Shown: in pieces, positions 1 through 19,988 of the stretch
Numbering within the stretch: position 1 is the first letter of the stretch
How the letters are laid out: the number at the start of each line of letters is the position of its first letter
IMG/VR virus record: IMGVR_UViG_2634166512_000003
DNA from: a virus
Taxonomy: Duplodnaviria > Heunggongvirae > Uroviricota > Caudoviricetes
DNA length: 47,118 nucleotides
Reading direction: 5' to 3' (one strand)
Translations under genes and position numbers: made by a program
The notes under the pieces: model-generated
Seen by the model: only the letters and a program-made list of their open reading frames with translations
What the model was told of the DNA's origin: nothing
The model's database searches: none

Positions 1-798
1 TTAATGAACATTCGTCGCCGAAAACGAGTCTGTATCATTAGTGCGATGCAGTCTCTGCAAAGGATCTTGTTGATAAAATTGGCAGAAACGTTGCCACAAT
101 GAAGGGAAACGAGGAGCAAAAAGTTCTGGGGCGCTAAAGAAATATTCAGAAAGTACGGCAAAACATTCAGCAGGATCACTGGCAGCATAAGCATCAATGC
201 TCGCCGCATTCTCGCCAACCAATTCGATTTCTTCCTGAATGTTGTTCATTGCAGCATGAAGATCGTGTTCCCAGCCAGCAACCTCACGCAACGGAATAAA
301 GGGAACTCCGCTGGCGCGATCGCCGTTACGGGTGTCCAGCTTATGAGCGACTTCATGAATAATCAGGTTAAAACCAGAAGCATCAAAAGAATCTTGTATA
401 TCCAACCAGTTCAAAACGATAGGCCCTTGCTGCCAGCTCTGACCTGACTGAACAATACGTTGGTTATGCACCAGACCGATATCGTCTTCCCATTCATCAT
501 CGACCACAAATGGCGCAGGATAAATTAAGACTTCATGAAAACCATCCAGCCATTCCAGTCCTAACTCCAGAACGGGTAGGCAAAATAGAAGTGCTATCCG
601 GCAGCTTCTTAATGAATCCAGTTCAAAGCCCTGTAAAGGAACAAGCCGCTTTTGCTGTAAAAAACGTTCGGCAAGAGTGACTAATTTGCTTTGTTCCTGT
701 TCCGTCAGACACGTTAAAAGGGGGATCGATAGTGCTTCCTGCCAGGGAAGGGCAGTTTGATGTGCTGATTCTTGTACTTTCCAGGGCCACTTAATCAT
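1..798 (-). CDS. mtfA: Mlc titration factor MtfA (zinc-dependent peptidase family); start placed at internal ATG giving MIKWPWKV N-terminus
   Basis: Translation begins [14 protein letters not shown] and contains HEVAHKLD zinc-binding motif, recalled as the E. coli MtfA/YeeI N-terminus; stop codon at 1..3; the ORF-track start at 837 adds 13 residues upstream. Confidence 0.8.
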
Positions 799-891
799 CG
801 TTTTGCTCGCAAACTCGTCACTTGAACAAAATTGCACGGACAGGGACTGTTAAAATGCCAAATTTCCTGGCATCATGGCAACCATCTGAAC

Positions 892-981
892 GGAGAGATG
901 CCGGAGCGGCTGAACGGACCGGTCTCGAAAACCGGAGTAGGGGCAACTCTACCGGGGGTTCAAATCCCCCTCTCTCCGCCA
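892..981 (+). tRNA. serU: tRNA-Ser, anticodon CGA, long variable arm, encoded CCA
   Basis: GGAGAGA acceptor 5' strand pairs with TCTCTCC at the 3' end; anticodon loop CTCGAAA (anticodon CGA); T-arm GGGGGTTCAAATCCCCC; ends GCCA; 90 nt. Confidence 0.85.
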
Positions 982-1066
982 CTTTATCAATGACTTACGT
1001 CACTCACTTTTCACCGTCGATCCCCCTGTTAGAACGGACTTAGAATATTCACTTAGAATTAGACCG

Positions 1067-2095
1067 TCACGGGTTTCTGCTCAGAACTGTGACATCCAGC
1101 ACCGGAATATCCAGAGTCGGAGAAACTGCAGGTTTGCGATCATACGTCAGCACCTGCGCCTCAGTTTTGTGACCAGAGAACAACTGCTTTTCTTTACTGC
1201 TTCCGTCGTAGTCTGAGATCCCCTTCGCTTTTAAATCGTGAAACGTTCCCGTAATCGGGTAGCCCAGCTTTTCACTTGCCGCCGCCCTGGCTTTACGCCA
1301 GATATCGTTAAATCCGGTATAACTGTATTGCCCGCCATATTTGTTACAGACCACGAAATGTTGTCCTCCCAACGATTTCGCCTGCTCAAGTGCGAACGTC
1401 AGTCGCTCTGAATACTGTTTGATCTGCTTTTTGCCAGTCTTACCCTGTTGGATAAACAAACCCTTACTCATAACCTGATCCCACGTCAGCTTTCGTATAT
1501 CGCCGATCCGCGTGGCGCACAGATAGGCGATCTCCATCGCGCACTGTAAAACGGGAGATGCCTCCTGATAAATTGCGATATATTCCTCGTCCGTGAAATA
1601 GTAGTCGCGGGGCTTGAGGGAAAATTTACTGACGCCCTGGCATGGATTCCCTTTTACGTATCCGCGTTCGTATCCCCAGCGGAATACTCGCGACATACTG
1701 GCTTTTTCATGGTTCGCCTGTGTTTTGCTTTTCAGCCCCCGCTTGTCCATATACAGCCGCACGTGAGCAGGTTTTATGTTGTCGGCTTTCATTTTCCCGA
1801 ACGCGGCGAGTAATTTCTTCTGGTGCTGCAGATAATCCTTTTGTGTACGCTGACCGAGTTCCAGATAGTAGGTGCTGTTGAGAAATTTGTTCCAGAGTTT
1901 ACTGAACGTCATGACATCAATAGCATCATTCAGGATCTCTTCGTATTTCACCCATACCTGAGCAATTGACAGATCATTAATTTTACCCAGCGTAATACAC
2001 TCTCGGGGCGTTGGTTTGAAATAATAGCTGTATTTGTTTTTATAAACGCGGGGTGGCAGCTTATTATCTTCCGCGCTTTTTCGTGTTCTGCTCAT
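1067..2095 (-). CDS. int: phage integrase (tyrosine site-specific recombinase)
   Basis: 342-aa ORF immediately downstream of the tRNA 3' end, convergent with it, a classic prophage-integration arrangement; C-terminal region reads like an integrase catalytic domain (assigned from memory of family features). Confidence 0.8.
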   Translation of the reverse strand: MSRTRKSAEDNKLPPRVYKNKYSYYFKPTPRECITLGKINDLSIAQVWVKYEEILNDAIDVMTFSKLWNKFLNSTYYLELGQRTQKDYLQHQKKLLAAFGKMKADNIKPAHVRLYMDKRGLKSKTQANHEKASMSRVFRWGYERGYVKGNPCQGVSKFSLKPRDYYFTDEEYIAIYQEASPVLQCAMEIAYLCATRIGDIRKLTWDQVMSKGLFIQQGKTGKKQIKQYSERLTFALEQAKSLGGQHFVVCNKYGGQYSYTGFNDIWRKARAAASEKLGYPITGTFHDLKAKGISDYDGSSKEKQLFSGHKTEAQVLTYDRKPAVSPTLDIPVLDVTVLSRNP

Positions 2096-2310
2096 CAGAT
2101 TGCATCAAAATTTGGTTGTTCTTCTTCGGCAATCTGCACGGACCTTGCTCCGGACAGCGCAGCGTTTACATGCGTCCATGTGACGCGAGGTCGCCCATCG
2201 CGGCGTTTTACATAAGGGATCCCGGCACGGGTCAGGGCGCCGCATTGTTTTGACGGGAACTGGTAGCCGGTCAGTTCAACCAGTTCCTCGTCGTTTAACA
2301 GATCGTTCAT
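2095..2310 (-). CDS. xis: excisionase-like small DNA-binding protein
   Basis: 71-aa ORF whose stop overlaps the int start (ATGA overlap); position and size typical of Xis; preceded by GAGGAAAGACC ribosome-binding motif. Confidence 0.5.
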   Translation of the reverse strand: MNDLLNDEELVELTGYQFPSKQCGALTRAGIPYVKRRDGRPRVTWTHVNAALSGARSVQIAEEEQPNFDAI

Positions 2311-2470
2311 GGTCTTTCCTCATTATGTAGCTTATTGCGTCATCTGCCACATGGCAGGCACGGGCAATATCAGACTCGGTCAAGGCCTGTTTCCTGACGC
2401 TGGCCGACAGTCGGCCAATTTTGATATCAAATGCGGAGAGCAGAGTTGCTCCCGGTTGCCATCGCAGCAT
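2276..2470 (-). CDS. hypothetical small phage protein (64 aa)
   Basis: ATG at 2470 preceded by AGGAGGA Shine-Dalgarno with about 6-nt spacing; 3' end overlaps xis start; the longer ORF-track version (start 2500) lacks this RBS. Confidence 0.35.
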   Translation of the reverse strand: MLRWQPGATLLSAFDIKIGRLSASVRKQALTESDIARACHVADDAISYIMRKDHERSVKRRGTG

Positions 2471-2519
2471 TGTGATCCTCCTGTTACTGGTGAATCGCAA
2501 TGCTAGCGATGGTGAGTTT

Positions 2520-2702
2520 TTATTTCTGATTAGGCGTAATCAGTTCTGGTGGGGGGAATGCCGATTTCTCCCGCGTGACCTTAATGTTTTCTGGCAGGTG
2601 TAGCCCAAGTTCGCAGCGACTCCGTGCTTCAATAATGCCATTGGTACCATCGGCAAGTACCAGGTGAACCGCGTCACCACGCTTTAATGTGAGTTTAAGC
2701 AT
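2520..2702 (-). CDS. hypothetical small phage protein (60 aa)
   Basis: Start codon overlaps the stop of the upstream gene (TAATG), suggesting translational coupling. Confidence 0.35.
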   Translation of the reverse strand: MLKLTLKRGDAVHLVLADGTNGIIEARSRCELGLHLPENIKVTREKSAFPPPELITPNQK

Positions 2703-3271
2703 TAGCGTACCCTCAGCGAACGTTCGCCGCGTTCCAGATGTGCGCCTGGTACCGGGTTTAATAACTCGGCTGGTGGTGTTTCTCCACGCGCCAGTATTTC
2801 GGCGGCAACCGCCTCCGCAGATTCAATCACTTCTTTAATGGCTCGCTTGTTTGGTGTAATAACCGTTTCTACATCAACAAGTGACACGCCTTCATACTCA
2901 TCCGGGATCTTATCTTTGCTATCGATAATTACCCGGATAGCCCCCTGTGCATCAGTAAATGTGTTTTTTGCGGTTTTTAGTTTATCCAGGCCAGCAGCTT
3001 GCAGGCAGGCGAGCATATGCTTCCGAATTGCTTTTTCCTTGCCTTCAAAGGACGTCTTACGGGTAGCCAGGCGAGACATTTCTTCAGCGCAGGTACTGGC
3101 ATTGCCCTGTAAATTGCGGCAGATGACCATCATGGCGTCCAGTTTGTCTCCCAGTTCTCCTTCCATACCTTCAAGTGTGTCGGCGATCATCTCTGGCGTC
3201 AGTTCGTCGGAGGTTTCCAGCAGGTCAATCAGGCTGGCGTATTCTTTTGCAATAGCGATAGCGGTGCTCAT
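2702..3271 (-). CDS. Gp157-family-like phage protein (recombination/early module)
   Basis: 189-aa acidic protein directly downstream of and overlapping the large annealing-domain protein; family assignment from memory and synteny only. Confidence 0.4.
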   Translation of the reverse strand: MSTAIAIAKEYASLIDLLETSDELTPEMIADTLEGMEGELGDKLDAMMVICRNLQGNASTCAEEMSRLATRKTSFEGKEKAIRKHMLACLQAAGLDKLKTAKNTFTDAQGAIRVIIDSKDKIPDEYEGVSLVDVETVITPNKRAIKEVIESAEAVAAEILARGETPPAELLNPVPGAHLERGERSLRVR

Positions 3272-5490
3272 GCTGTTTGCTCCTGTGCGGCGGCGAGAGC
3301 GGCGAGGCGTTCGGTTTTGATTTCATTCAAACGGCGCAGGCGCGAACCAAGATAAGTTGAATACTCCTTATCACCTTTGGATTCTGCGGCTTTGCGGTGA
3401 ACTTCTACTTCCCGCGCAATAAGGCCATAGACTTTATTAACTTCATTGGGGGTTACGGCTGCAGCCAGTGTTTTGGCAACACCTGAGAGTCGTTCATCCA
3501 GTTCTTCACGCAGTCGGGTAGCATCCTCTGCTTTCTCGCTTGCCTTCTTAATACCGTATTCTGTATTCAGCTCGGCGGTGTAGGCACTATCGTTATGCAT
3601 ATCCATATAAACATCTGCCGCAAATCCCAGATGAGATAGTGCTTTGACGGTGGCATCAGTAAGAGACTTTTTGGAGGCCTCTTTTTCCATTACCAGTGCC
3701 CCTTTGTTATTTTTTGATATGTAATCCGTGTGGCCATATGACGGAATAAATCCTTTCACTCCGTTCCAGACGTACCAGAGATCTATCCGGATGGTGTGTA
3801 CTGACAGGCAGAACAGGGAGCCGTCAGCATCCCTGACAGGTTTTTGTCCAATAATTTTCCCTGTCTGATCCTGTATAGGTTCAAGTAATGGCACACCGCG
3901 ATCCACTCGCTCCTCCTTGATTTCAACTCCCCAACCAATGCCTTCCATTCCCAGCACTTCAGTCGCACGCATCAAAATATATTGTGCGCGTATGGAGTGC
4001 AGTCCTGCACCGTAATCATTATGTGTGACATACGCAGGATCGGTCCGCTGAACGCGATTCCAGATAGCCAAATTTGCTTTGCTCTGGTCATCATTCATTG
4101 CTGACAGATAATGCTCCATGCGAATTGATGCAGTTTTTTCCTCGGTATGGATCCGCTCAACCAGAGCGTCAACGTTCTGCACCAGGTCTTTTACCTGCTC
4201 GCTAAGTTTTTCTTGTGGAGGAGTCTCTTCTTCCAGGATAACAGTTACAGATTCCCGCTGTGATACGGCGTTATTTTCTGGTACGCCATACACATGGCGG
4301 GGCGTGACAAACTGCTCACGCAACTGCTGCAAACTACGCTCTCCAGCATTTGCTGCTTCGCTTTTTTCGCCCTGATTTGAGGGGGGTTCTGACATCATCC
4401 CATCGATTGAGAATCGCCCGCCGCCGTGGTTGGTGACTTTTACATCACCCTTTGGTGCTGCGTCCTTTGGCTTCTCTTCAACAGCATTTGCATCACGCTG
4501 CCCGTTAGCTTGCAGCCAGTTGTCGATGTGACTGCGCAGGGATTGCGGGAAATGGTACGTGTCTTTTGCGGGGGCACTCTGAACGACACCGAATACGGAT
4601 GCCCGGTCATAGGAAAGGATCTGATCCGTTGTGCGCAAGGCCATTGACCAGCGTTTAAAATCCTCCCGATCCTGGCTGATTATTTCGTCTGCCGCTTTCA
4701 GGACGCTGGGGGTGATTTTTTCCGGGCCAACGGGTAACAGAGCGCAGGCAATTTCACGATCCAGTGTAGCGTGAGTCTGTTTGTAAGGACGTGCGGATGC
4801 TGTTTCTGGTTTTACCTCCGGCAGCATTTCATCGCGTTTACCGGGATTCTCTACCCATTTTTTTATAAATTTGGAGATAGTCCAACTGGTCGGGTTTTGT
4901 TCCTGGGTATCGCAACTTGCCAAAATTGCATGTACCAGATTATTCAATCCAGCAATATGCATGTACTCGATGGGCTTACACGCCACCATGGCATCAAGAA
5001 CGATGCGGTTAAACGCGTCAACCTCATCCTCACTGTCAGTATCACTGTTGTCGAGCATCTCCAGGTATTCACGCGTCTGCGCAAGCAATTCACTGTTGAC
5101 TTCGTTGGCGTCGTGGCTGAACAGCAGAACGGCGGCGAATCGTTCACGAGCCGGCAGTTTCATCAGGTCGTTAACCTGTGCGATATCTGCTGAACCGCTA
5201 TCTACAACGGGGGTGTTAACTACCCATTTTTCGCCATCAAAACTGTGTTCTGTGGCGAACGTCTCATCAAACTCACCAACGCCTGGGCGCGGTTGGCCCG
5301 GGGCATCTTCCCAGATTTTAGGTTTGAAATAGTTGTCGCCGTGGTCAGGGTAGGCTTCCCACAATTTGCCGATGATGATGTTCTCGGCAACTTTTTTGTT
5401 AGGGGCGTCGATGGCGATGGCCAGCGCCGGGATCGCGCCGTTTTTGAGCGCGCCTTTTTTCGCTTCTAACAAGCCGTTAAAAATGGTCAT
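3268..5490 (-). CDS. large phage recombination protein: C-terminal Rad52/Sak/ERF-like single-strand annealing domain with about 400-aa N-terminal extension of unknown function
   Basis: 740-aa ORF with GAGGAAAGACC RBS; C-terminal half contains KKSLTDATVKALSHLGFAADVY, resembling the K-x-x-TDA-x-K-x-A-...-G-x-G-...-Y signature of Rad52-like annealing proteins; N-terminal half not recognised. Confidence 0.5.
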   Translation of the reverse strand: MTIFNGLLEAKKGALKNGAIPALAIAIDAPNKKVAENIIIGKLWEAYPDHGDNYFKPKIWEDAPGQPRPGVGEFDETFATEHSFDGEKWVVNTPVVDSGSADIAQVNDLMKLPARERFAAVLLFSHDANEVNSELLAQTREYLEMLDNSDTDSEDEVDAFNRIVLDAMVACKPIEYMHIAGLNNLVHAILASCDTQEQNPTSWTISKFIKKWVENPGKRDEMLPEVKPETASARPYKQTHATLDREIACALLPVGPEKITPSVLKAADEIISQDREDFKRWSMALRTTDQILSYDRASVFGVVQSAPAKDTYHFPQSLRSHIDNWLQANGQRDANAVEEKPKDAAPKGDVKVTNHGGGRFSIDGMMSEPPSNQGEKSEAANAGERSLQQLREQFVTPRHVYGVPENNAVSQRESVTVILEEETPPQEKLSEQVKDLVQNVDALVERIHTEEKTASIRMEHYLSAMNDDQSKANLAIWNRVQRTDPAYVTHNDYGAGLHSIRAQYILMRATEVLGMEGIGWGVEIKEERVDRGVPLLEPIQDQTGKIIGQKPVRDADGSLFCLSVHTIRIDLWYVWNGVKGFIPSYGHTDYISKNNKGALVMEKEASKKSLTDATVKALSHLGFAADVYMDMHNDSAYTAELNTEYGIKKASEKAEDATRLREELDERLSGVAKTLAAAVTPNEVNKVYGLIAREVEVHRKAAESKGDKEYSTYLGSRLRRLNEIKTERLAALAAAQEQTA

Positions 5491-5520
5491 TGGTCTTTCC
5501 TCATTACAGGTCAGTGGTTT

Positions 5521-5841
5521 TTAGTAGGGGAGCTCATCGGTATCTGGCGTGTATTCGATGCAAAGTAACTGCTGGATTTTGTCATCGATAGCAGCAATAC
5601 GCTGTTGAGCGTCGGCGGCTGTATTCTGTTTTTGCTCACGCAGCTGCTCGACCTGCAAACCGATGATGTCGATTGGCTGGGGCTGGTTGACGGTAATTTC
5701 AATTTCGCGGCTTTCCAGAAGGATGTACCTGTCTGGAAAATTTTTTGACATATCAACCGTCGCAATAAACAGCTTTTCATGGCTGAAAGTTGAAGTTGCA
5801 TAATGAATAAAGAGTGTTACTGGGATGGTGCGCGCTTCCAT
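5521..5841 (-). CDS. hypothetical phage protein (106 aa)
   Basis: ORF with AAGGAG RBS upstream of ATG at 5841. Confidence 0.45.
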   Translation of the reverse strand: MEARTIPVTLFIHYATSTFSHEKLFIATVDMSKNFPDRYILLESREIEITVNQPQPIDIIGLQVEQLREQKQNTAADAQQRIAAIDDKIQQLLCIEYTPDTDELPY

Positions 5842-6689
5842 AGCGACTCCTTGGTGATGTATACTCGGGACCGATCAGCGAATATTGATCAGCTTCCATA
5901 GCGTCAGTGTCGTTGGTCTTTCCTCATCACAAGTTTGGTCACTTGTGATAAATCCGAATGGTTTGGTCGCCGTTCGGGGTAACTGGCCCGCCTTGTGCGG
6001 GTCTTTTGCTATCTAAAGGGTGCCGGTTACGTTTCCGGCGTCGTTATGTTTCCATCACGACCGTACGGGGCTGGTCTTTCCTGTTTTGAGCTGGTCAGGC
6101 TCATGGTCAACGCTGGTCAGGCGTGGTACTTCCTCCGGTCTTTCCCTGGTGTCACGCTGCGGGTTTGGCCTCTCCTGTTGGGGACTCAGGCACAGCGATA
6201 AAACCTGGCTGTGTGAAAAAATGGCCCATCGTGCGGACTGGGCAAAGACTAAACACAGCAAATTGATGATGGGCGCCCGGAATCGAACCGGGTAACGGGC
6301 AGGGAGTTCCCGTTAAACACCTGTTCACCACAACCGGGAGCGCACTCCGCCATTTCAAAATTTAACGACAAAGCTCAAAGTTGAGTCGATGAAGTGCGCT
6401 CTCGTGTTGTAGCCAGGACTCTTCCCTGGTGGTCACACCGTATCGCCTTGATGGTGAATCAATCGCTCATACCTGGCTGTGGCTTGCACATTCCGGCTAC
6501 CTGCTATGGAGACAACGCGTTAAGGCTCCGCTTCCATCCAGACCGCTTCGACACATGTGCCATATGCCGGCGAAGTCTTTCCCTCTGTCATCGTGTTGGC
6601 GCCGACGCGCAAAATTTGATGCCGTCTTTCCGGCTGTCAGAACGTGTTTCTGAACAACTGCCGCTGGGTAAGCGTTGTTGATGAAAGTG

Positions 6690-6750
6690 ACTTTACAATT
6701 TGTATTTGTAATGGTCAACGTATTTTTAAAAAATAATTTGTAGTTAGGGG
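6690..6750. promoter_or_regulatory. putative leftward operator/promoter region (OL/PL-like) downstream of repressor gene, with ATTTGTA-type repeats
   Basis: acaatttgtatttgtaatgg and aataatttgtagtt share the ATTTGTA(A/T)T motif also found in the repressor/cro intergenic region. Confidence 0.3.
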
Positions 6751-6837
6751 CAAAAAAATATTCACTGTGTAAAGGTGTTTTTGTGTTAGGGGGAAAGTTG
6801 CATGCCAGCAGCGGCTGGCCTGAAAATTTGAACTGAA

Positions 6838-7251
6838 CTATTTTGTCTGGTTTTTGGCTTCAAGTAGTTCTTTTAGCAGTAGATCGAAGTGCTCTCTTTT
6901 TTCTTTTAGCTCATTGATTAATTTATTTTTTTCGCTCTCAGGCAGTCCTCTGAATAGTTGCAGTAGAGCCTGTTCTTGCGGGGTTAGTTCTTGATTGTAA
7001 TTACCCGGGTGTAGCGTGGATTCATCCAAATATTCCCCTTCATTCATGAAGAAAAAATGAACAGGGTATCCGGTCACTTTTGCTAGCTTGTCTAATTTAT
7101 CTTTTCTTGGAGTTACCCCATTACACCATGCCTGAACTGATTGAGCCGTAACCCCAATATGGCGAGCTAACTCAGATTGAGACCAGCCTAAGTCTTTTAG
7201 AATCCGTTGTAGTCGGCTAGCAAAAGCCATGTTTTTCGTTTTTGTGTTCAT
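6838..7251 (-). CDS. prophage repressor, DicA-like (XRE-family HTH N-terminus, no autopeptidase domain)
   Basis: HTH region LKDLGWSQSELARHIGVTAQSVQAWCNG; C-terminal LLQLFRGLPESEKNKL resembles DicA as recalled; divergent from a Cro-like gene; ORF-track start at 7266 is TTG, first ATG at 7251 preferred. Confidence 0.75.
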   Translation of the reverse strand: MNTKTKNMAFASRLQRILKDLGWSQSELARHIGVTAQSVQAWCNGVTPRKDKLDKLAKVTGYPVHFFFMNEGEYLDESTLHPGNYNQELTPQEQALLQLFRGLPESEKNKLINELKEKREHFDLLLKELLEAKNQTK

Positions 7252-7266
7252 ACCGTAAGGATACAA

Positions 7267-7349
7267 GGTTTAATTGTAGGGAGCATTGCAAATATAATTT
7301 GTAATTACAGTTATGATTTGTAATGATGGCGCGGACACAAGGAGTCCAT
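7267..7349. promoter_or_regulatory. divergent operator/promoter region between repressor and cro-like genes
   Basis: Contains perfect 10-bp palindrome TGTAATTACA, two ATTTGTAAT direct repeats, a TATAAT hexamer and TTGCAA; AAGGAG RBS before cro-like ATG at 7350. Confidence 0.45.
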
Positions 7350-7580
7350 ATGGATAAACAACTGCAAGACAAAATTCTTTCCGTAATGAGTCAATCCGAG
7401 TTAGGGCGGCGATTAGGGAAAAAACCACAAACGGTAAGCCTCTGGTTCAAAGGAAGGGTTCCCGGTGAAGAGGTTTTGCGCACATCTGAAGCTCTTGAAT
7501 GGCGCGTGACCCCCCATGATCTTAGACCGGATCTTTACCCAAACCCAGATGACAGCTTGCCTAAAACGAAAGCAGCTTAA
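7350..7580 (+). CDS. Cro-like / YdaS-family HTH regulator
   Basis: Small protein with HTH (LGKKPQTVSLWFKG) divergent from repressor; start at ATG 7350 with AAGGAG RBS rather than ORF-track 7323. Confidence 0.65.
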   Translation: MDKQLQDKILSVMSQSELGRRLGKKPQTVSLWFKGRVPGEEVLRTSEALEWRVTPHDLRPDLYPNPDDSLPKTKAA

Positions 7581-7638
7581 CTGTTGGTGAGCCCCAAATC
7601 TGATTAAGCGTAATCAATTTTTAGCGACAGGAGACGCT

Positions 7639-8115
7639 ATGGAAAACCAAGAGGAATTACAAAAAGAGATTTTGACCTGGGCGGCAAGGGCAGGGCAGGA
7701 ACTCGTCACGATTGAAATCTGCCGGGCCTGGTTCAGTCAGGGACGCAATGATGAGTTGAGACTACATGAATTTGAGGACGCGGACGGCAATGTGGACTGG
7801 AGAGCCATCAACAACAATCGGCAGAAAATCTTTCGCTGGTTACGTGGCGAGACAACGGCGGCGCGCCGAAAAACTCAGGTGCTGGCCAGTGTGATGAAAG
7901 CCGTGCTACCCGCAGAACGGCGGGCACGTCTGGAGTCGCTGGGCGATCCCGTTTTGCTGGCAACGCTGGCGGCAAAAGAAGGGGTGGAAGCGATTAACGC
8001 TGTACATCTCCACTTCGCGCCAGAGTTAACTATCCAGGAAATTGACGAAGCAATAGCGGCGCTGGTAGCGACGCGAGGAGCAGTGATACGCACTGCGCAA
8101 GACCACCATGCATGA
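7639..8115 (+). CDS. YdaT-like early regulatory protein (CII-position gene)
   Basis: 158-aa ORF immediately after cro-like gene, as in ydaS-ydaT pairs of Rac-type prophages; assignment by synteny and recalled similarity. Confidence 0.45.
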   Translation: MENQEELQKEILTWAARAGQELVTIEICRAWFSQGRNDELRLHEFEDADGNVDWRAINNNRQKIFRWLRGETTAARRKTQVLASVMKAVLPAERRARLESLGDPVLLATLAAKEGVEAINAVHLHFAPELTIQEIDEAIAALVATRGAVIRTAQDHHA

Positions 8116-8154
8116 GCGCCTGACCAGCGTTTAACTTATACCGAGGAAAGACCG

Positions 8155-8379
8155 ATGTTAAGACATATTGACCGCATTACCTGGCGTAACGGCTGGCACC
8201 TGAATGGGCGCCCGGCACATGTTGCAGAGATCCAACCTATTTTTGATGGGCGTATGGCTGCCGCGCTTTCGGTGTGGGAGCAGTATGAATCCAGGAAGGT
8301 CGAGTTGCGCGACAAAGGGCTGAGCAATGCGGACTATGAAGCCGGTTGTCGTCAGATAGCCGAAGCTCTGGAGATCTGA
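8155..8379 (+). CDS. hypothetical phage protein (74 aa)
   Basis: ATG preceded by GAGGAAAGACC motif; stop 2 nt before next start. Confidence 0.45.
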   Translation: MLRHIDRITWRNGWHLNGRPAHVAEIQPIFDGRMAAALSVWEQYESRKVELRDKGLSNADYEAGCRQIAEALEI

Positions 8380-8381
8380 GT

Positions 8382-9446
8382 ATGAGTCGTTTGCTGATTA
8401 ACGAAAACCCCCTTCAGGTCCTGCCCACGTTGGCATGCACTATAGGGTTGAATGAAGCCATCGTTCTACAGCAAATCCACTACTGGCTGAATTCATCTCA
8501 AAATTTCTTCGAAAATCGCCACTGGGTGTACAACAGTGTGACCGATTGGCAAGAACAATTCCCGTTCTGGAGCGAGTCGACAATAAAACGCGTGCTGGCC
8601 AATCTGGAAAAATTGAATGTGGTATTTACTGGGAACTTTAACAGTGATGCCTGGGATAAAACCAAGTGGTATTCAATCAATTATGCCCAGTTATGTAAGA
8701 TTGAAGAGACAACATTCCCTGTGGCCAATCGATTAGGTCAAGTTGACCCAATCGAAGAGGTCAATGTGACCCAAGCATCAGGTCAAGTTGACCCATGCGC
8801 TAAGGTCAAAATGACCCAATCTCTTACAGAGAATACAACAGAGAGTACTACAGAGATAAAAGATCCCCCTTACCCCCAAAAGGGGGAGGGCGAGGAAATC
8901 ATTCTCGCTGACGCTCAAAAAGCTCTGAACTACTACAACGAGAAAGTCGGTACACGCTGCCGCGATGTTAAACCGTTTGTCATGCTGCTGACTGCCACCA
9001 CCACCCGCGCTGGTTACAGCGTGGCTGAGATTCAGTTAGTAATTCGTTGGGTTATTGCGACATGGCGCCGTCGTAGCGGAAGCGTGCCGAAACCTGCGAA
9101 CATTTGCCGCGTAAACCGGTTTGACGGATATCTGGCTGACGCTGAGGCGTGGGCCACTGCTGAGGCTGCCGTTGACCCTGCTGAAGTTGTGAAGAGCTAC
9201 AACGAGATTCTGGGCGACCTGCTACCTATAGCTGAAATTGATACTGACCGCCGTCGGGCAATCCTGCGCCTGCTGGCACATATGCGCACGCAAACTCTTG
9301 GCGCATTTATCGGCTACTTCGAAAAATTCCGCGATAACGCCCCAGACTTCTATTTCGGCGGCGAATATCGCACCGGCTGGCGGGCAGGGTTTGATTACCT
9401 GATGAAGCCAGAAACACTGCGTAAAACCAGGGAAGGGGCATTATGA
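8382..9446 (+). CDS. phage replication initiation protein (O-like / replisome organiser)
   Basis: ATG at 8382 with GGAG RBS (ORF-track start 8346 is TTG); position between early regulators and helicase; acidic linker and conserved C-terminal region typical of phage replication initiators. Confidence 0.6.
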   Translation: MSRLLINENPLQVLPTLACTIGLNEAIVLQQIHYWLNSSQNFFENRHWVYNSVTDWQEQFPFWSESTIKRVLANLEKLNVVFTGNFNSDAWDKTKWYSINYAQLCKIEETTFPVANRLGQVDPIEEVNVTQASGQVDPCAKVKMTQSLTENTTESTTEIKDPPYPQKGEGEEIILADAQKALNYYNEKVGTRCRDVKPFVMLLTATTTRAGYSVAEIQLVIRWVIATWRRRSGSVPKPANICRVNRFDGYLADAEAWATAEAAVDPAEVVKSYNEILGDLLPIAEIDTDRRRAILRLLAHMRTQTLGAFIGYFEKFRDNAPDFYFGGEYRTGWRAGFDYLMKPETLRKTREGAL

Positions 9447-9645
9447 ATCCAGAAGAACTGGAAGCGATCGTTCTCGCTGGTCTGATTAACGGTGGCGCGA
9501 CGCCTGACGCGTTTGATGTGATTGCCACTACTCCGGAGGAAGCCTTCAGCATCGTGTTTCGTAAGCGTAAACTGACCGCCGTATGTAGCCATCAGACGAG
9601 AATTGGTAACTTAGACGCCCATCTGATATAGACGGACATCTAAGT

Positions 9646-10071
9646 ATGGAATTACAGGACTGGCGAAAAGAACCTCGTAAAAACTATTCGAATGAATTCA
9701 AACTTCGTATGGTGGAACTGGCATCACAACCTGGAGCTTGTGTTGCACAGATTGCACGTGAAAATGGCGTCAATGATAATGTTATTTTCAAATGGCTCAG
9801 GCTCTGGCAGAACGAAGGGCGTGTTTCGCGGCGTCTTCCGGTAACGACCTCTTCTGACACTGGCGTTGAATTATTACCTGTAGAAATAACGCCGGATGAG
9901 CAGAAAGAACCTGTGGCGGCCATTGCGCCGTCTTTATCCACTTCCACTCAGACCAGAGTCAGTGCCAGTTCCTGCAAGGTGGAATTCCGTCACGGTAACA
10001 TGACGCTGGAAAATCCATCGCCAGAGCTGCTCACAGTGTTGATCCGTGAACTGACCGGGAGGGGAAGATGA
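9646..10071 (+). CDS. IS66 family accessory protein Orf1 (TnpA-like)
   Basis: 141-aa HTH-containing protein, first of the IS66 three-gene set. Confidence 0.8.
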   Translation: MELQDWRKEPRKNYSNEFKLRMVELASQPGACVAQIARENGVNDNVIFKWLRLWQNEGRVSRRLPVTTSSDTGVELLPVEITPDEQKEPVAAIAPSLSTSTQTRVSASSCKVEFRHGNMTLENPSPELLTVLIRELTGRGR

Positions 10072-10418
10072 TCTCACTCCCATCAGGTACCCGTATCTGG
10101 CTCGTTGCCGGCGTTACCGATATGCGTAAATCCTTCAACGGACTGGGAGAACAGGTACAACATGTGCTGAATGATAATCCCTTCTCCGGTCACCTGTTTA
10201 TCTTCCGTGGCCGACGGGGTGACACCGTCAAAATTCTTTGGGCTGATGCTGATGGTCTGTGCCTGTTCACCAAACGCCTGGAGGAAGGCCAGTTTATCTG
10301 GCCTGCGGTACGTGACGGCAAGGTATCCATTACCCGCTCGCAACTGGCAATGCTCCTCGATAAGCTGGACTGGCGTCAGCCAAAAACATCCAGCCGTAAC
10401 TCACTGACAATGTTGTAA
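10068..10418 (+). CDS. IS66 family accessory protein Orf2 (TnpB-like)
   Basis: 116-aa protein overlapping Orf1 stop (ATGA), characteristic IS66 arrangement. Confidence 0.8.
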   Translation: MISLPSGTRIWLVAGVTDMRKSFNGLGEQVQHVLNDNPFSGHLFIFRGRRGDTVKILWADADGLCLFTKRLEEGQFIWPAVRDGKVSITRSQLAMLLDKLDWRQPKTSSRNSLTML

Positions 10419-10448
10419 AAAACTCCTGACCGCATTATAAAAACGGTC

Positions 10449-12062
10449 ATGAGTCAGAAATACCTCATTCGCATCGCAGAGCTGGAAAGGTTGCTCTCTG
10501 AGCAGGCTGAAGCCCTCCGTCAGAAAGACCAGCAACTGAGTCTGGTTGAAGAGACGGAAGCCTTCCTGCGCTCTGCACTGACACGTGCCGAAGAAAAGAT
10601 CGAAGAAGATGAACGGGAAATAGAACATCTGCGGGCTCAGATAGAAAAACTGCGCCGGATGCTGTTCGGTACCCGTTCTGAAAAACTGCGTCGTGAAGTT
10701 GAACTGGCTGAGGCTCTGCTGAAACAACGTGAACAGGACAGCGATCGTTACAGTGGGCGGGAAGACGATCCTCAGGTTCCCCGCCAGTTGCGACAGTCGC
10801 GCCATCGTCGTCCGTTACCGGCACACCTTCCCCGTGAAATACACCGCCTGGAGCCAGAAGAAAGCTGTTGCCCGGAGTGTGGCGGTGAGCTGGATTATCT
10901 GGGGGAAGTCAGCGCTGAACAGCTGGAACTGGTGAGCAGTGCCCTGAAAGTGATCCGCACAGAACGGGTAAAAAAAGCCTGTACAAAATGTGACTGTATT
11001 GTTGAAGCACCGGCGCCGTCCCGCCCGATAGAGCGTGGTATCGCGGGCCCCGGATTACTTGCCCGCGTGTTAACGGGAAAATACTGCGAACATCTGCCAC
11101 TGTATCGTCAGAGTGAAATCTTTGCCCGCCAGGGTGTCGAACTGACCTGGGCCTTACTCTCCAACTGGGTTGACGCGTGCTGCCAGTTAATGACACCGGT
11201 GAATGATGCCCTGTACCGTTATGTAATGAACACCCGCAAGGTTCACACTGATGACACACCGGTAAAGGTACTGGCACCGGGTCAGAAAAAGGCGAAAACA
11301 GGGCGTATCTGGACGTATGTCCGGGATGATCGCAATGTGGGTTCGTCATCTCCTCCAGCGGTCTGGTTCGCGTACTCGCCGAACCGGCAGGGGAAACACC
11401 CGGAGCAACACCTCCGCCCCTTCCGGGGTATCCTGCAGGCGGATGCGTTCACAGGTTACGACAGGTTGTTCAGTGCAGAACGTGAAGGTGGTACACTGAC
11501 AGAAGTTGCGTGCTGGGCCCATGCCCGGCGAAAAATCCACGATGTATACATCAGCAGCAAAAGTGCGACGGCAGAAGAAGCCCTGAAGCGAATCAGTGAA
11601 CTGTACGCCATCGAGGATGAAATACGGGGATTACCGGAGTCAGAGCGTCTTGCCGTCAGGCAGCAGCGAAGCAAAGTGTTACTGACGTCGCTGCATGAAT
11701 GGATGGTGGAGAAGAATGGTACGCTGTCGAAAAAATCCAGACTGGGCGAAGCGTTCAGCTATGTACTGAATCAGTGGGATGCCCTCTGTTATTACAGTGA
11801 TGACGGTCTGGCGGAGGCGGATAATAATGCTGCGGAAAGAGCGCTTCGTGCAGTCTGTCTCGGAAAGAAAAACTTTATGTTCTTTGGCAGCGATCACGGC
11901 GGCGAGCGTGGAGCACTGTTGTACGGGCTGATCGGCACCTGCCGTCTGAACGGTATCGATCCGGAAGCGTATCTGCGCCATATCCTGAGCGTACTGCCGG
12001 AATGGCCTTCCAACCGAGTTGACGAACTCCTGCCATGGAACGTAGTACTCACCAATAAATAA
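10449..12062 (+). CDS. IS66 family transposase
   Basis: 537-aa protein with N-terminal coiled-coil/leucine zipper, CxxC zinc motif and DDE-type core as recalled for IS66 transposases. Confidence 0.85.
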   Translation: MSQKYLIRIAELERLLSEQAEALRQKDQQLSLVEETEAFLRSALTRAEEKIEEDEREIEHLRAQIEKLRRMLFGTRSEKLRREVELAEALLKQREQDSDRYSGREDDPQVPRQLRQSRHRRPLPAHLPREIHRLEPEESCCPECGGELDYLGEVSAEQLELVSSALKVIRTERVKKACTKCDCIVEAPAPSRPIERGIAGPGLLARVLTGKYCEHLPLYRQSEIFARQGVELTWALLSNWVDACCQLMTPVNDALYRYVMNTRKVHTDDTPVKVLAPGQKKAKTGRIWTYVRDDRNVGSSSPPAVWFAYSPNRQGKHPEQHLRPFRGILQADAFTGYDRLFSAEREGGTLTEVACWAHARRKIHDVYISSKSATAEEALKRISELYAIEDEIRGLPESERLAVRQQRSKVLLTSLHEWMVEKNGTLSKKSRLGEAFSYVLNQWDALCYYSDDGLAEADNNAAERALRAVCLGKKNFMFFGSDHGGERGALLYGLIGTCRLNGIDPEAYLRHILSVLPEWPSNRVDELLPWNVVLTNK

Positions 12063-13412
12063 GCGTCAATACGGTGCTCCGTTGACGCTTACCGTGTTTC
12101 ACCGTCGCGCTTTCAGCGAAATCAAAAAGCAGGCACTGGCGAACGGCATGATCGACATGTTGTTTATCAGCGAAGCGCTGGGCGGTTCCAGCCTTGCGGA
12201 TCTGTCTCAAATATCCCGGATCCCGGCAACGGCACCGAATCTGAAAGGCTATGCCGGGAAAATGGTGCGGGCATGGCGGAGCCGCAAAATGGCGGCATTG
12301 TTGCAATCTGGCGCGGATGGTATCCGTAACGCTGTAAACCAGAGTCAGCGTGATGAGGTTATTGAATCTCATGTTGCTCAGGTGCTGGATATGAGCGCCG
12401 CTACCGGCACAGTCCAGCCGGTACACATCAAAGAGCTGTTACCGCTCTACATTGACACCGTTGATAAACGGATGTCTGGTGACGCGCAGGAAATGATGCT
12501 GAAAACCGGAGTCGAGGATCTGGATGTCGCCCTGGGCGGTATCAACATGACCGATCTTGTTGTGGTTGCCGGTCGTCCAGGCATGGGGAAAACGGAATTT
12601 ACCCTGAAGATTATCGATGGCGTTACCGCAGATGGCGGCGGCGCACTGTTTTTCAGCATGGAAATGGGCGCTCAGCAGATTGTTGAACGTACCGTTGCCG
12701 GGGCTGGGAATATGTCAACGTCGCGTCTGCGTAATCCAAAAGAAATGGACGATGAGGATTTGACCAGATTAACCGCCGCGCTTGCAATCATGCAGGATCG
12801 CGATATCTGGATTGTTGATGCCACTGATTTGACGATTGAGCAGATCCGCGCCATTGCAGAGACTCATAAACGCCGTTATCCGCACCTGAAGTTGATTGGT
12901 GTTGATTACATGGGCCTGATCAAAAAACCGAAGGCCGAGCGCCACGATCTCGCTGTCGGGCATATCTCCCGCAACATGAAGACTATGGCCATGCGTCTGC
13001 ATACCCCTGTTTTTGCTCTTAGCCAGCTTTCCCGCCAGGTGGATTCTCGACCTGCTGGCCAGCGTCGCCCGGTGATGTCGGACCTGCGCGATTCCGGCAG
13101 TGTTGAGCAGGACGCTGACAGCATTTTGTTTTTGTACCGCGATGAAGTTTACACACCTGATTCACCTGCAAAGGGTATCGCCGAGGTGATTATCGGTAAA
13201 AACCGTTCTGGCGGGGCAGGTGAAATTATTTATCAGGAATTCCGGAATGGGCATTTCCTGCCAATTGATCAACACGTAGCACGCGAAAAAATACGCATCC
13301 AGAAGGAGGCAGAGCAACCGAGAAAACGTGAAAAACGGTATTCAAACAAAAACTTTAATACGGACCCATTTTAACCACGCATGACCAGCGTGAAATAACC
13401 GAGGAAAGACCA

Positions 13413-15921: not shown

Positions 15922-16845
15922 TTATTGGTTTCTGAGGAAAGCGATTCTTGAAAGGGTCATTTGCGTCTGGCAGTCGACCATTTTCTTGACTTCAGCATCT
16001 GTTCCCTGCATTGAAACTTTACCGCACATAGCATCCTTAGTTTTGATCCACTGACGCTGAGAAGGCAGCAACTCTTTTTTCTTCGCCGGCGTTAACCTGC
16101 CCCAGACTGTATTCAAATCAGAGTCAGCATTCGCAAATGCCATTCGGGACTGATCAAGGCTTTCAGCTTTTTGCGGCTGAAGTTGTGCCTGCCTCTCTAT
16201 TTGCTTCTCCGCCTCATACCTGGCCTGTTCCTGTGCCCTGAGTTGCACCTGTTGTTCCGCTTCAATTTGACTCTGTTGGGCATCCTTAGCCTGCTGGATT
16301 TTCTGCTGCTCAACGATCGGGTTGATAATGGAAAGCGATGTCAGTAAAGCGGCGCCCACTGATATCGGATTATCAGAAGAGGTTTTTACAAAAACGTTTT
16401 TCTGATCGTCGGTCGCCTGCACGGTGTAGGTGATACGTTTTGAAAAGGCGTTTGCGTTGTTCTCCAAAAACAGATTTTCCATTTGCTTATCGAGATTACG
16501 ATTAAAATTCTTTCGGTAAGCATCAGAAAGCTGGATGTACTCGTTCGCAGGTAGAGTCATCGTCACGGTCCCTTCACAAGTTTTCATTGTGCTGCCCGTG
16601 TCACTTGATGTTGTGGAGATTTCAGAGACGGCTAGTTTGATCTTGTCCAGTGTGCTTCGTTTGGTCTGATTAGTGACATCAGGGTATTTATCGACCTGTT
16701 CAGAGAGTCCTTCATAAGCAGATTTTTTTAATAAATCCATGAGAGCTGATTGGGTCATTTCCGAAGAACAACCGATCTCATCTTTTTTGTTATCACAGCC
16801 TGTAAGGGCAATGGCGAGTAAGAGTACTGAGTATTTTAATCTCAT
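15922..16845 (-). CDS. lipoprotein with Gln-rich coiled-coil region and C-terminal DUF1311/LprI-like domain
   Basis: Signal peptide with lipobox LTGC; C-terminal QRQWIKTKDAMC...CQTQM motif resembling DUF1311 as recalled; minus-strand orientation opposite to flanking phage genes. Confidence 0.55.
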   Translation of the reverse strand: MRLKYSVLLLAIALTGCDNKKDEIGCSSEMTQSALMDLLKKSAYEGLSEQVDKYPDVTNQTKRSTLDKIKLAVSEISTTSSDTGSTMKTCEGTVTMTLPANEYIQLSDAYRKNFNRNLDKQMENLFLENNANAFSKRITYTVQATDDQKNVFVKTSSDNPISVGAALLTSLSIINPIVEQQKIQQAKDAQQSQIEAEQQVQLRAQEQARYEAEKQIERQAQLQPQKAESLDQSRMAFANADSDLNTVWGRLTPAKKKELLPSQRQWIKTKDAMCGKVSMQGTDAEVKKMVDCQTQMTLSRIAFLRNQ

Positions 16846-17471
16846 GAATTCCCTTTAGAGTAAGGATTGGTTTTTAAGACGCGGTCTGTAATCAGTTCCG
16901 AGAGCTACAGTAAACAACGCTGAGCACTGAACGCATCACAGGCAAGGTAAAAGGTGATATCGGCAAAGGCTGTGAAACCTTTAATTCAACAGATGGGAAC
17001 GGTATGCACAGGATCCTGTAACGACGCTCCCAAAACCGGAAACCTGTAAGGCATGTTTTCGCTGCTGAACTTAATATACGAACCTGCACTATCATGAACA
17101 TATTTTATATCGTTATACCCCGAGTGATTGTGCCCGGCAATGGATAGTGTCCTGGAGGAACTATTTCTACTGTAAAAGGTAGACATTTAATTTCAGTGTG
17201 GAATTATTCCCTGCTGTTAATAACCATGGCTCTATATGGCACCGAGCGGACTAGTTAACTTGCCTGAAAGCCGCTATGAGTGAGGAGCGAATATTGGCAC
17301 GATAGGATACCTGAACCATTTTTTGGACATGCGCTAAAAGCGAATGATTAGTTTTATCGGAATATTTACAGTATACTTACAAGGCAAGCTTGGCGTACCG
17401 TCTTGGGCGAGATTGCTTAAATTATTTTGTGGATATATCATTCAAACAAAAGATAATAAAATGAGGTTGTT

Positions 17472-17669
17472 ATGTCATATATTCGCGTAGAGAAAGATGG
17501 CCTTCAGTATGAAGCAGAATACTTCCGTGAAGAGGATATGGTCACAGTCTTTGGGGTTAGAGGAGGGCATTCCAGCGTGGTTCTAAATGGAATGACAGAA
17601 GTCGCGGCTGCTCGTACTGCGTTACGAAATCTTATTAGAGAAAATCAGGTTGATCCTCTAACTGATTAA
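17472..17669 (+). CDS. hypothetical small protein (65 aa)
   Basis: ORF in AT-rich island upstream of the T5orf172-like gene. Confidence 0.35.
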   Translation: MSYIRVEKDGLQYEAEYFREEDMVTVFGVRGGHSSVVLNGMTEVAAARTALRNLIRENQVDPLTD

Positions 17670-17873
17670 AAATAAGCCATCTTAACTGAGAGCATATTTT
17701 GATATAATTTAGATTAAATCTATTTTGAAGGTTAGTTTGGGATGAGAAGATTACATCAAAACCGTTATTACTAGCAATAAGTTGTGTAAATCAAATAATA
17801 CATAATCAGGTGGTAATATATACTAAGCGTAGTAAAGTTTTTATATATTCCTGTAACTTTGTGAGAAACTTCC

Positions 17874-18539
17874 ATGAAAGCCGACAACTTAAGAATTATA
17901 GAGAATGGCAAATATGTTTTCGATATGTTCTTGGATACTGGTGAATTTTACTATACAAGTCATGCCTTTGACACGAGAGAAGATGCAAAAAGCTGGATGG
18001 AAGAATGGCAGATTTGGGCAAATAATGTATCGAGTGGGAAAGTAAGTAGTATTTATTATATTTTACAAGTGCCTGATACTTGGGCCGGTTCTTCAGATAA
18101 AAATAACCCTTACTCGGGACTTTATGTGAAAATAGGGCGTTCCAATAATGTGCTAAAAAGGTTGTCTAACCTGCAGACAGGTGCATTTGGTCAATTAATA
18201 TTACACGCTTTGGAACCAGGTGGTTCAGAAAAAGAAAACTATCTTCATGAAAAATTTAGCAACGAAAGACGTCAAGGTGAATGGTTTGTTTGTACTAAGG
18301 AACTTACCAAGCATATATTTACAACATGGTTTAAAAACAAAATGCTCCCACCAGAACATCAAATAAAAATAATGCAGCTCGCAGAAAGAACAGGTATTTA
18401 TTCGCATGTTCATACACTAATGGGGGGGAAGCCAGACTTAGTAAACCCATCTATTAGTGAACCTTGGGAATGCGAAAAATATGTTTTGGTTGATATGATT
18501 TATAGCTCTTTAGCAAAGCAAGTTAATCATAAAAAATAA
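17874..18539 (+). CDS. T5orf172/MUG113-type (GIY-YIG superfamily) domain protein with uncharacterised N-terminal domain
   Basis: Motif GLYVKIGRSNNVLKRLSNLQTG...LHEKFSNERRQGEWF matches the recalled T5orf172 consensus (YVKIG...R...L..TG...LH..F...R..GEWF); AT-rich codon usage. Confidence 0.7.
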   Translation: MKADNLRIIENGKYVFDMFLDTGEFYYTSHAFDTREDAKSWMEEWQIWANNVSSGKVSSIYYILQVPDTWAGSSDKNNPYSGLYVKIGRSNNVLKRLSNLQTGAFGQLILHALEPGGSEKENYLHEKFSNERRQGEWFVCTKELTKHIFTTWFKNKMLPPEHQIKIMQLAERTGIYSHVHTLMGGKPDLVNPSISEPWECEKYVLVDMIYSSLAKQVNHKK

Positions 18540-18664
18540 AGTGTTACATTTTAACTATACAATTATTGATTCACTAATGAAGAGGTGATTTAGACGTATG
18601 AAGTTTTAATAAGCTCCAAGAATATTTTGTCATACATGGGTTAAAGAGTTATATAATAATATCT

Positions 18665-18722
18665 GCTTCTGGAACACAGCAGACAAGCACCTGCAGATAA
18701 AGGTCTGCTGAGAGCGAGAAGC
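18665..18722 (+). other. nested inverted-repeat element (possible structured RNA) in intergenic gap
   Basis: GCTTCT...AGAAGC outer stem enclosing CAGCAGAC...GTCTGCTG inner 8-bp stem with 18-nt loop. Confidence 0.3.
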
Positions 18723-18859
18723 GGATCATACGTTGGAAGTTGTTTAGGCAAATACGTTATAAACGTATTTGATTAAATTTACTTGGATCATAGTCTTCAA
18801 TAACGCTTTATTATATTGTTTTTCATGCAGCAAACAGGTTCACAGGTAGGTAATAAGCT

Positions 18860-19979: not shown

Positions 19980-19988
19980 TCTAAAGCG

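Follow-up and report, generated by a model that had tools for sequence, protein, structure and literature searches.

A prophage protein annotated as an exonuclease combines a RecE-like N-terminal region with a predicted Rad52-fold annealing domain

The IMG/VR virus record IMGVR_UViG_2634166512_000003 (47,118 nt; this whole stretch of DNA is referred to as the window) begins in mtfA, passes through a tRNA into a prophage, and represents an Escherichia coli prophage adjoining mtfA/tRNA-Ser. Two open reading frames (ORFs) on the minus strand occupy positions 2702-5490, one of 740 amino acids (aa; 3268-5490) and one of 189 aa (2702-3271). Taken as a whole, the evidence is best explained if the larger ORF encodes a Rad52/Sak-type single-strand annealing protein (SSAP) of phage origin without a detectable nuclease domain, fused to a scaffold that corresponds to the N-terminal region of RecE (RecE-N), and we consider this explanation very probable. 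A reading made from the sequence alone had placed a recombination module at 2702-5490, composed of a 740-aa gene and a Gp157-like gene, and had confined a Rad52/Sak-like signature to the C-terminal part of the larger protein. The coordinates and the gene pair were exact to the base, and the location of the signature was borne out by fold and profile evidence (aa ~471-634). The gene pair and the modules of the 740-aa protein are as follows.

3268-5490, minus strand: 740-aa gene, comprising a RecE-N-like scaffold, a linker, a predicted Rad52-fold annealing domain and a helical C-terminal domain; stop codon at 3268-3270, with a ribosome-binding site and a start codon
5203-5490, minus strand: module A, aa 1-96, the most conserved N-terminal segment and a remote counterpart of the start of Pfam Exonuc_VIII (RecE N-terminus)
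4810-5202, minus strand: module B, aa 97-227, acidic (net charge -12), duplicated in some homologues
4486-4809, minus strand: module C, aa 228-335, the segment most widely common to RecE-type and DnaQ-type prophage exonucleases, with the motifs TLD.EIA, REDFKRWS and YDR..IFG
4081-4485, minus strand: linker, aa 336-470, acidic, of varying length and less conserved than any other part
3589-4080, minus strand: predicted Rad52-fold annealing core, aa 471-634, with a helix (502-513), the strands of a long beta-hairpin (520-593) and a helix (605-619) that carries KKSLTDA..KAL..LG
3271-3588, minus strand: C-terminal helical domain, aa 635-740, made up of three long helices that most free-standing homologues share
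2702-3271, minus strand: Gp157-family gene, 189 aa, Pfam PF05565, whose start overlaps the stop of the 740-aa gene

Conservation of the 740-aa gene

The stretch was 100% identical to annotated genes of E. coli TUM11353 and other complete E. coli genomes, and the identical RefSeq coding sequence (WP_028985345.1) is named 'exonuclease family protein' by NCBI. A near-identity DNA search of the phage collection gave no match, and relatives emerged at the protein level. A homologue search returned 1182 proteins, the best 120 of which were nearly all 710-844 aa in length (Escherichia, Salmonella, Klebsiella and Raoultella). Full-length homologues were also found in two isolated phages, BUCT708 of Stenotrophomonas (45% identity) and ZF40 of Pectobacterium, the gp07 of which (721 aa, annotated 'exonuclease') was 35% identical (E = 7e-119). 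In nearly all of 80 related IMG/VR loci, the ORF containing the C-terminal domain was 650-880 aa long; it was followed by Gp157 and then usually by the 60-aa gene, xis and int, and a homologue of the 106-aa gene usually lay upstream. Among the protein clusters listed, more than 100 from several genera possessed this continuous 650-880-aa architecture, at 35-77% identity. Because full-length homologues recur in several genera and in isolated phages, we judge that the large ORF represents a genuine and conserved gene, which excludes a frameshift artefact.

The gene family is mosaic inside. The N-terminus of one homologue (P0002) was near-identical to that of the window protein and its C-terminal domain was only 52% identical, and the annealing core occurs in two clearly different allelic types (P0002/P0003 and the window protein, respectively). 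Homologues of 804-844 aa (P0004, P0008, P0029 and P0031) contained an extra copy of the ~100-aa module B. Mean identity across 21 homologues was 0.77 in module A and 0.40 in the linker. Further, every full-length homologue listed carried a precomputed assignment to PF27430, a recent entry in Pfam. Free-standing annealases did not, so PF27430 apparently lies outside the annealing domain. A module-C search from the exonuclease families returned only short fragments (<230 aa) that revealed no architectures; as these lacked PF27430, module C also appears to lie outside this family. Another family, PF27432, was precomputed on some exonuclease fragments from enterohaemorrhagic E. coli (EHEC).

The predicted Rad52-fold annealing domain

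When a profile of aa 456-740 was searched against 1.84 billion representatives, 3780 cluster representatives were retrieved. Approximately 25 of the best 150 were fusions, and the rest were mostly free-standing proteins of 235-300 aa that started at residue ~2. Many free-standing homologues matched the profile up to position ~240-280, which includes the helical domain, and the ~270-aa annealase unit (core plus helical domain) is free-standing in many phages. The C-terminal part of the window protein was aligned with 59 relatives, mostly free-standing (alignment A3; 60 sequences). Pfam Rad52_Rad22 (PF04098) was not matched by the window protein itself and was matched by 18 of the 60 members of A3 (best E = 1.9e-5). 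Two full-length homologues gave sub-threshold matches to the same family (E = 0.04-0.1) over most of the profile. The relatives of one free-standing member were mostly without a Pfam assignment, and a few carried precomputed PF04098.

An AlphaFold2 model of the C-terminal part, built from 60 diverse sequences, reached a predicted local distance difference test score (pLDDT) of 94.6 and a predicted template modelling score (pTM) of 0.81. Foldseek returned exactly two matches below 1e-3 from the PDB, both to the N-terminal domain of human RAD52 and both aligned end to end. Predicted viral structures that were matched by fold bore the names Rad52/59/22, RAD52-like recombinase, SAK3 and Erf. According to this model, aa ~471-634 adopt a Rad52 fold, with its beta-beta-beta-alpha core, long hairpin and DNA-binding helix, next to which stands a three-helix C-terminal domain (aa 635-740). 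The three helices (model residues 180-222, 226-249 and 253-284) had pLDDT values of at least 95. The C-terminal domain of lambda Red-beta binds lambda Exo and host SSB (PMC6393309), and by analogy the helical domain may serve in partner binding.

Residue comparisons with RAD52, here and below, use a RAD52 sequence entered by hand. Using hhalign, the family was aligned with RAD52 aa 46-176 (E = 1.1e-4), and the family motif ..KK.LTDA.KKAL..LG was paired with RAD52 RKEAVTDGLKRALRSFG. The KK of the family consensus aligned with K152/R153 of RAD52, and the corresponding pair in the window protein is V615/K616. K616, which aligned with R153, is invariant across homologues, as are G517, W520, K607, K608, T611, D612 and G622.

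Phages of Vibrio, Pseudomonas and Sulfitobacter encode free-standing Rad52-like proteins of ~250 aa that bear the annotation 'exonuclease' via PHROG 7838 (e.g., L007:2989-3735). The record of Pseudomonas phage PseuP_222 names its own copy 'RAD52-like annealing protein'.

The RecE-like N-terminal region

PHROG 2489, which is labelled 'exonuclease', was matched over the full length of the 740-aa protein, and aa 231-335 matched the RecE-like PHROG 607 and 2082. In the same segment, aa 230-335 matched positions 260-370 of the NCBIfam model of exodeoxyribonuclease VIII (PRK09709; E = 5e-13). When a profile of aa 1-225 of the family (A8) was compared with RecE-type N-termini (A7; Pfam Exonuc_VIII) using hhalign, aa 7-222 were aligned with RecE 6-223 (probability 92.6%, E = 4.5e-7, 198 collinear columns). 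In BLASTP, Salmonella phage SPN3UB contributed a RecE-type protein that aligned to aa 141-323 (E = 6e-16), and a 'putative exonuclease' from an EHEC prophage aligned through its N-terminus to aa 14-330 (E = 4e-21). Within module C, BLASTP matches were to RecE of K-12 (aa 263-332) and to the proteins of SPN3UB, 640R1 and PPompW_699. There was no direct match of PF06630 (Exonuc_VIII) to the window protein, so that its relation to RecE-N by this family is remote; two relatives, L050 (814 aa) and L020 (881 aa), matched PF06630 directly at the N-terminus (E = 4.7e-77 and 2.7e-17, respectively). A search of PDB sequences with the N-terminal profile A4 returned nothing meaningful. On the strength of the PHROG, NCBIfam, BLASTP and profile-profile matches, sequence comparison identifies residues 1-335 as diverged from, and collinear with, the N-terminal region of RecE, which is non-catalytic.

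RecE carries its nuclease at the C-terminus (aa 564-866), and the function of the N-terminal domain is stated as unknown (PMC11611040). Full-length RecE gains linear-linear recombination activity (PMC11611040). The nuclease of RecE K-12 was detected as Pfam DUF3799 (PF12684) at aa 615-850. The window protein did not match this family, and family searches of Pfam and NCBIfam revealed no nuclease family (PD-(D/E)XK, DEDD or other) in the 740-aa protein.

The sequence-only reading had found no recognisable family in the N-terminal region. However, PHROG 2489, the NCBIfam RecE model, the profile match to Exonuc_VIII and the presence of PF27430 on all listed homologues assign it to one. Its suggestion that the region could be a fused exonuclease partner was rejected, because the likeness to RecE lies outside the nuclease at aa 564-866 and no nuclease family was matched. 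The fallback that it offered, an unrelated domain, came closest of its readings to the truth, and the region proved to be a common domain but not a characterised one.

The linker (aa 336-470) has a net charge of -10 and 59% disorder-promoting residues, and is rich in insertions and deletions in alignment A1. With disorder inferred from this composition, the linker (~135 aa) is probably flexible. The scaffold is better conserved than the linker and, in places, better than the annealing core.

Exchange of C-terminal domains

The scaffold was found with three alternative C-termini, namely a RecE-type PD-(D/E)XK nuclease, a DnaQ-like 3'-5' exonuclease and a Rad52-like annealase, in the following proteins.

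RecE of K-12 and the SPN3UB protein: scaffold at the N-terminus; PD-(D/E)XK nuclease at the C-terminus
Protein of phage vB_EcoS-640R1 (L006:2182-4623): N-terminus 58.6% identical to RecE K-12 over aa 50-591; DnaQ-like DEDD exonuclease (Pfam Rv2179c-like) at the C-terminus
EHEC PPompW protein (PPompW_699, L003:3866-6333): scaffold at the N-terminus; DnaQ-like DEDD exonuclease at the C-terminus
The present 740-aa family: scaffold at the N-terminus; predicted Rad52-like annealase at the C-terminus
L050 (814 aa) and L020 (881 aa): direct Pfam Exonuc_VIII match at the N-terminus; annealing domain of the 740-aa family at the C-terminus

On the combined evidence of sequence and structure prediction, we regard the 740-aa protein as a RecE in which the C-terminal nuclease is replaced by a putative annealase. 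The 640R1 and PPompW_699 proteins are annotated 'exodeoxyribonuclease VIII' or 'exonuclease', and end in a DEDD 3'-5' exonuclease, not in the RecE nuclease. Since RecE-like proteins of this EHEC type have a DEDD ending, the Pfam name 'Exonuc_VIII' labels a non-catalytic N-terminal domain.

Like the proteins of the Rad52/Sak type (Sak of lactococcal phage ul36, the N-terminal domain of human RAD52 and yeast Mgm101), the 740-aa protein is predicted to possess the Rad52 core fold; it shares with this type a location in the recombination or early region and has free-standing phage relatives of ~250 aa, some of which are members of PF04098. In contrast to Sak and Rad52, it has an N-terminal extension of ~455 aa (scaffold plus linker), which is undescribed for Sak/Rad52. 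It also possesses the C-terminal domain of three helices, and its sheet is lengthened by an additional beta-hairpin insertion (aa ~536-560).

With the RecE-type proteins of Rac and Gifsy/SPN3UB it shares the collinear N-terminal ~335 residues followed by a long, variable linker, as well as a position in the early-left operon near xis/int. However, RecE ends in a PD-(D/E)XK 5'-3' exonuclease and is followed by the RecT gene in Rac and SPN3UB (the SPN3UB protein has an Exonuc_VIII N-terminus and a PF12684 C-terminus, with RecT next), whereas the 740-aa protein ends in the predicted Rad52-fold annealase and the next gene encodes Gp157, not RecT. The 'exonuclease' proteins of EHEC PPompW/Stx prophages and 640R1 possess the same N-terminal scaffold (over the aa 14-330 alignment given above) but have the DEDD C-terminus and no adjacent Gp157 gene. 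Lambda Red-beta and RecT resemble the 740-aa protein in general layout, with a small C-terminal domain of helices behind the annealing core; they differ in that they belong to another sequence family, are partnered by a dedicated exonuclease gene and lack a RecE-like N-terminal extension.

The Gp157-family partner

The 189-aa protein matched Pfam PF05565 (Sipho_Gp157) with E = 2.5e-28 and 99.5 bits against a cut-off of 28.6, confirming the Gp157-like neighbour of the sequence-only reading. The pairing was kept in related loci: of 80 viral loci, 79 had a Gp157 homologue directly downstream of the annealing gene, and the exception ended without downstream sequence. Further, Gp157 adjoins the annealing gene in ZF40, BUCT708 and Pseudomonas phage PseuP_222, in the last of which the annealing gene is free-standing. 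As Gp157 follows both fused and free-standing annealases, the annealase-Gp157 pair is a conserved unit.

A GAGGA-type ribosome-binding site precedes the 740-aa gene, which overlaps the 189-aa gene by 4 nt (ATGA), and no terminator-like sites were found on the minus strand between 5490 and 2520. Because of the 4-nt overlap, the two genes are probably co-transcribed, as had been proposed from the sequence alone, and translationally coupled. The transcription order of this early-left operon on the minus strand is the 106-aa gene, the 740-aa gene, the 189-aa Gp157-family gene, the 60-aa gene, excisionase and integrase.

The 189-aa protein belongs to PHROG 253, labelled 'Mu Gam-like end protection', a label that several records carry as well. 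Pfam PF07352 was not matched by the 189-aa protein, and a search of PDB sequences with the Gp157 profile returned nothing meaningful. In those prophage genes that were checked or annotated, neither a lambda-Exo-type nor a RecE-type nuclease domain was detected. Only two genes looked nuclease-like: the AT-rich accessory region contains one for a GIY-YIG/T5orf172 protein, and the nin region one for a YbcO-like protein.

Proposed function and alternative interpretations

We propose that the C-terminal domain would assemble into a Rad52-like ring or oligomer, bind single-stranded DNA in a basic groove that includes K616 and anneal complementary strands. The phage would use such annealing in DNA repair, in the formation of concatemers and in mosaic recombination. 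A flexible tether would attach the RecE-N scaffold to each subunit, and the scaffold probably supplies a non-catalytic function that RecE also needs, which may be recruitment to DNA ends, recruitment to a partner from host or phage, or higher-order assembly. Gp157 would assist the annealase, possibly by end protection or by modulation of (host) nucleases. As no lambda-Exo-type or RecE-type nuclease domain was detected in the prophage genes that were checked or annotated, the single-stranded DNA would be supplied by host nucleases or by replication.

Several results weigh against this proposal. The window protein has no Pfam match, so the gathering score of PF04098 is not reached, and PDB sequence searches with the full protein and with the C-terminal profiles A2 and A3 returned nothing meaningful; its membership of the Rad52 family rests therefore on the predicted fold and on transitive homology. 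A first AlphaFold2 model, from nine close homologues, was poor (pLDDT 61.7), and the good model accordingly depends on the alignment of free-standing homologues. The position of RAD52 K152, which is Lys in the family consensus, is Val615 in the window protein. The annealing function is assigned computationally, and a cryptic catalytic site within the N-terminal 340 residues, although unlikely, would be at odds with a nuclease-free protein. Regarding Gp157, the label of PHROG 253 was not reproduced: hhalign of 16 Gp157 sequences against Mu Gam gave a probability of 0.9%, and Mu Gam (PHROG 491) and Gp157 (PHROG 253) showed no cross-match.

The scaffold may have an activity of its own that is directed at DNA ends or at the host, such as end binding, engagement of RecBCD or SSB, or end synapsis, in which case the fusion would be a self-sufficient, two-function recombinase that works without a partner exonuclease. 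Consistent with such an activity, the scaffold is better conserved than the linker and in places than the annealing core, it is retained with three different DNA-end-processing C-termini, full-length RecE gains linear-linear recombination (PMC11611040), and the prophage genes that were checked or annotated showed neither a lambda-Exo-type nor a RecE-type nuclease domain; however, family, fold or motif evidence for a specific activity was not found. We hold this possibility tentatively; it extends the fused-annealase explanation and does not contradict it.

A further, equally tentative extension takes the N-terminal region of RecE for a module that is autonomous and can be exchanged. To a partner or substrate shared by all, it would deliver whatever DNA-end enzyme a phage uses, be it a Rad52-type annealase or a nuclease of 5'-3' or 3'-5' polarity; multiple copies on a Rad52-like ring, acting together with Gp157, would make up a recombination system that has no nuclease of its own. 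If this is true, the natural domain swap would make the function of the RecE N-terminus directly testable.

Alternatively, the annealing domain could be a degenerate relic, a decoy or a regulator, for example one that senses recombinases in defence or counter-defence, instead of an active recombinase. Gp157 is described in Pfam as associated with phage resistance, which counts for this alternative, as does the one RAD52 groove lysine that is not kept. Defence systems and satellites are also reported to target or sense phage SSAPs (PMC13581612 and PMC11846896). On the other hand, core motifs are under strong purifying conservation across hundreds of homologues, the gene lies in the early-left operon, where recombination modules sit, and PADLOC gave no matches. 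We give this alternative only a slim chance, and the reading as a defence system was rejected for want of PADLOC matches.

That the public annotation is right, and that the protein is a RecE relative that degrades DNA ends, is very improbable. The NCBI name, the 'exonuclease' labels of PHROG 2489 and 7838 and the partial similarity to the RecE NCBIfam model favour it. However, the similarity is confined to RecE aa ~6-370, outside the nuclease domain, no PD-(D/E)XK, DEDD or other nuclease family was matched, and a Rad52 fold is predicted where RecE has its nuclease. Further, the free-standing 250-aa 'exonuclease' proteins of PHROG 7838 are Rad52-like too. As no nuclease domain was detected, the likeness to RecE lies outside the nuclease and the free-standing PHROG 7838 proteins are Rad52-like, the 'exonuclease' names given by NCBI and PHROGs, including PHROG 7838, are best explained by annotation transfer, for the free-standing proteins probably out of the fused family.

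The chance that a recent frameshift, or an error in sequencing or assembly, joined two adjacent genes is negligible, and this explanation was ruled out by conservation. Although free-standing ~250-aa annealing proteins exist and a few related loci (L013, L058 and L062) have split or shorter ORFs, most of the 80 viral loci, as well as over 100 of the clusters listed, possess the continuous 650-880-aa architecture, and the sequence is identical in independent complete genomes.

Relation to published surveys and significance

Rad52-like phage recombinases are well established (PMC2896510), as is mosaic domain shuffling, and no known principle is overturned here. A literature search found no paper describing a RecE-N/Rad52 fusion. 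For 325 lambdoid phages, a survey published in 2025 (Zheng, Casjens, Davidson, Amundsen and Smith, Genome Res; PMC12315714) covers annealing proteins, nucleases including DnaQ-like ones and anti-RecBCD proteins, and it states as unknown the roles of 'RecE-2' proteins, which are related to RecE and lack a nuclease domain. Table 1 of the same survey assigns to ZF40 only an anti-RecBCD protein, and neither an annealing protein nor a nuclease. ZF40 resembles the present prophage in that its gp07 is a full-length homologue and in the synteny of Gp157, a small ORF, xis and int. Because this table gives ZF40 no annealing protein, the Rad52-like domain of gp07 was apparently not recognised there.

A widespread family of enterobacterial prophage proteins, together with free-standing phage relatives named 'exonuclease', thus look like annealases, and reannotation alters the counts of recombination modules, for example in ZF40. 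The RecE N-terminus (~350-600 aa) appears as a portable module common to nucleases and an annealase, which points to a role in targeting or assembly. This region of RecE has a known boosting effect on linear-linear recombination and an application in direct cloning, and the main value of the present family is the handle that it offers on RecE N-terminus function. The annealase-Gp157 pair, with or without the scaffold, is a candidate recombineering tool for Enterobacterales, Pseudomonas and Vibrio.

Neighbouring genes and other features of the prophage

The genes on either side of the pair, and the tRNA, are as follows.

5521-5841, minus strand: conserved 106-aa gene upstream of the 740-aa gene; PHROG 2479 (unknown-function label)
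2520-2702, minus strand: conserved 60-aa gene downstream of Gp157, with a 1-nt TAATG overlap; PHROG 2482 (unknown-function label)
1067-2310, minus strand: excisionase (DUF4224; 2095-2310) and tyrosine integrase (1067-2095), which close the early-left operon beside tRNA-Ser/attL
892-978: tRNA, the only match in an Rfam scan of 1-9000

The product of the 60-aa gene matched the CsrA family weakly and below threshold (E = 0.1, over profile positions 1-45 of 53) and had no match in a search of PDB sequences; the product of the 106-aa gene had neither a PDB nor a PADLOC match. Between the recombination operon and the cI-like repressor, ~1 kb (5842-6837) contains no ORF longer than 95 aa, RefSeq annotation or Rfam match, and holds two strong terminator-like hairpins on the plus strand (5985-6003 and 6019-6042).

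An IS66-family element at 9561-12092 is inserted relative to the otherwise identical TUM11353 prophage. It contains a helix-turn-helix transposase ORF (9646-10071), TnpB_IS66 (10068-10418) and DDE_Tnp_IS66 (10449-12062), and is flanked by an 8-bp duplication (9553-9560 and 12093-12100). Since the element interrupts a DnaB-like replicative helicase gene ~118 nt into it, this copy of the prophage is probably replication-defective.

An AT-rich accessory block at ~16000-20500 (GC 0.40-0.41 vs ~0.50 elsewhere) encodes the T5orf172/GIY-YIG-like protein (17874-18539), and in the annotation of the identical block of TUM11353 also an LprI-family protein and an ImmA/IrrE peptidase. This block looks like a moron or a defence-type insertion. 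A 77-bp stretch (921-997) overlaps the 3' part of the tRNA, and the TUM11353 prophage has an exact copy of it at its far end (L090, 39697-39773); this repeat is likely the attL/attR core, and attR would lie ~350-420 bp past the end of the window. The prophage combines a lambda-like head module with a P2-like contractile tail, as in phage ZF40.

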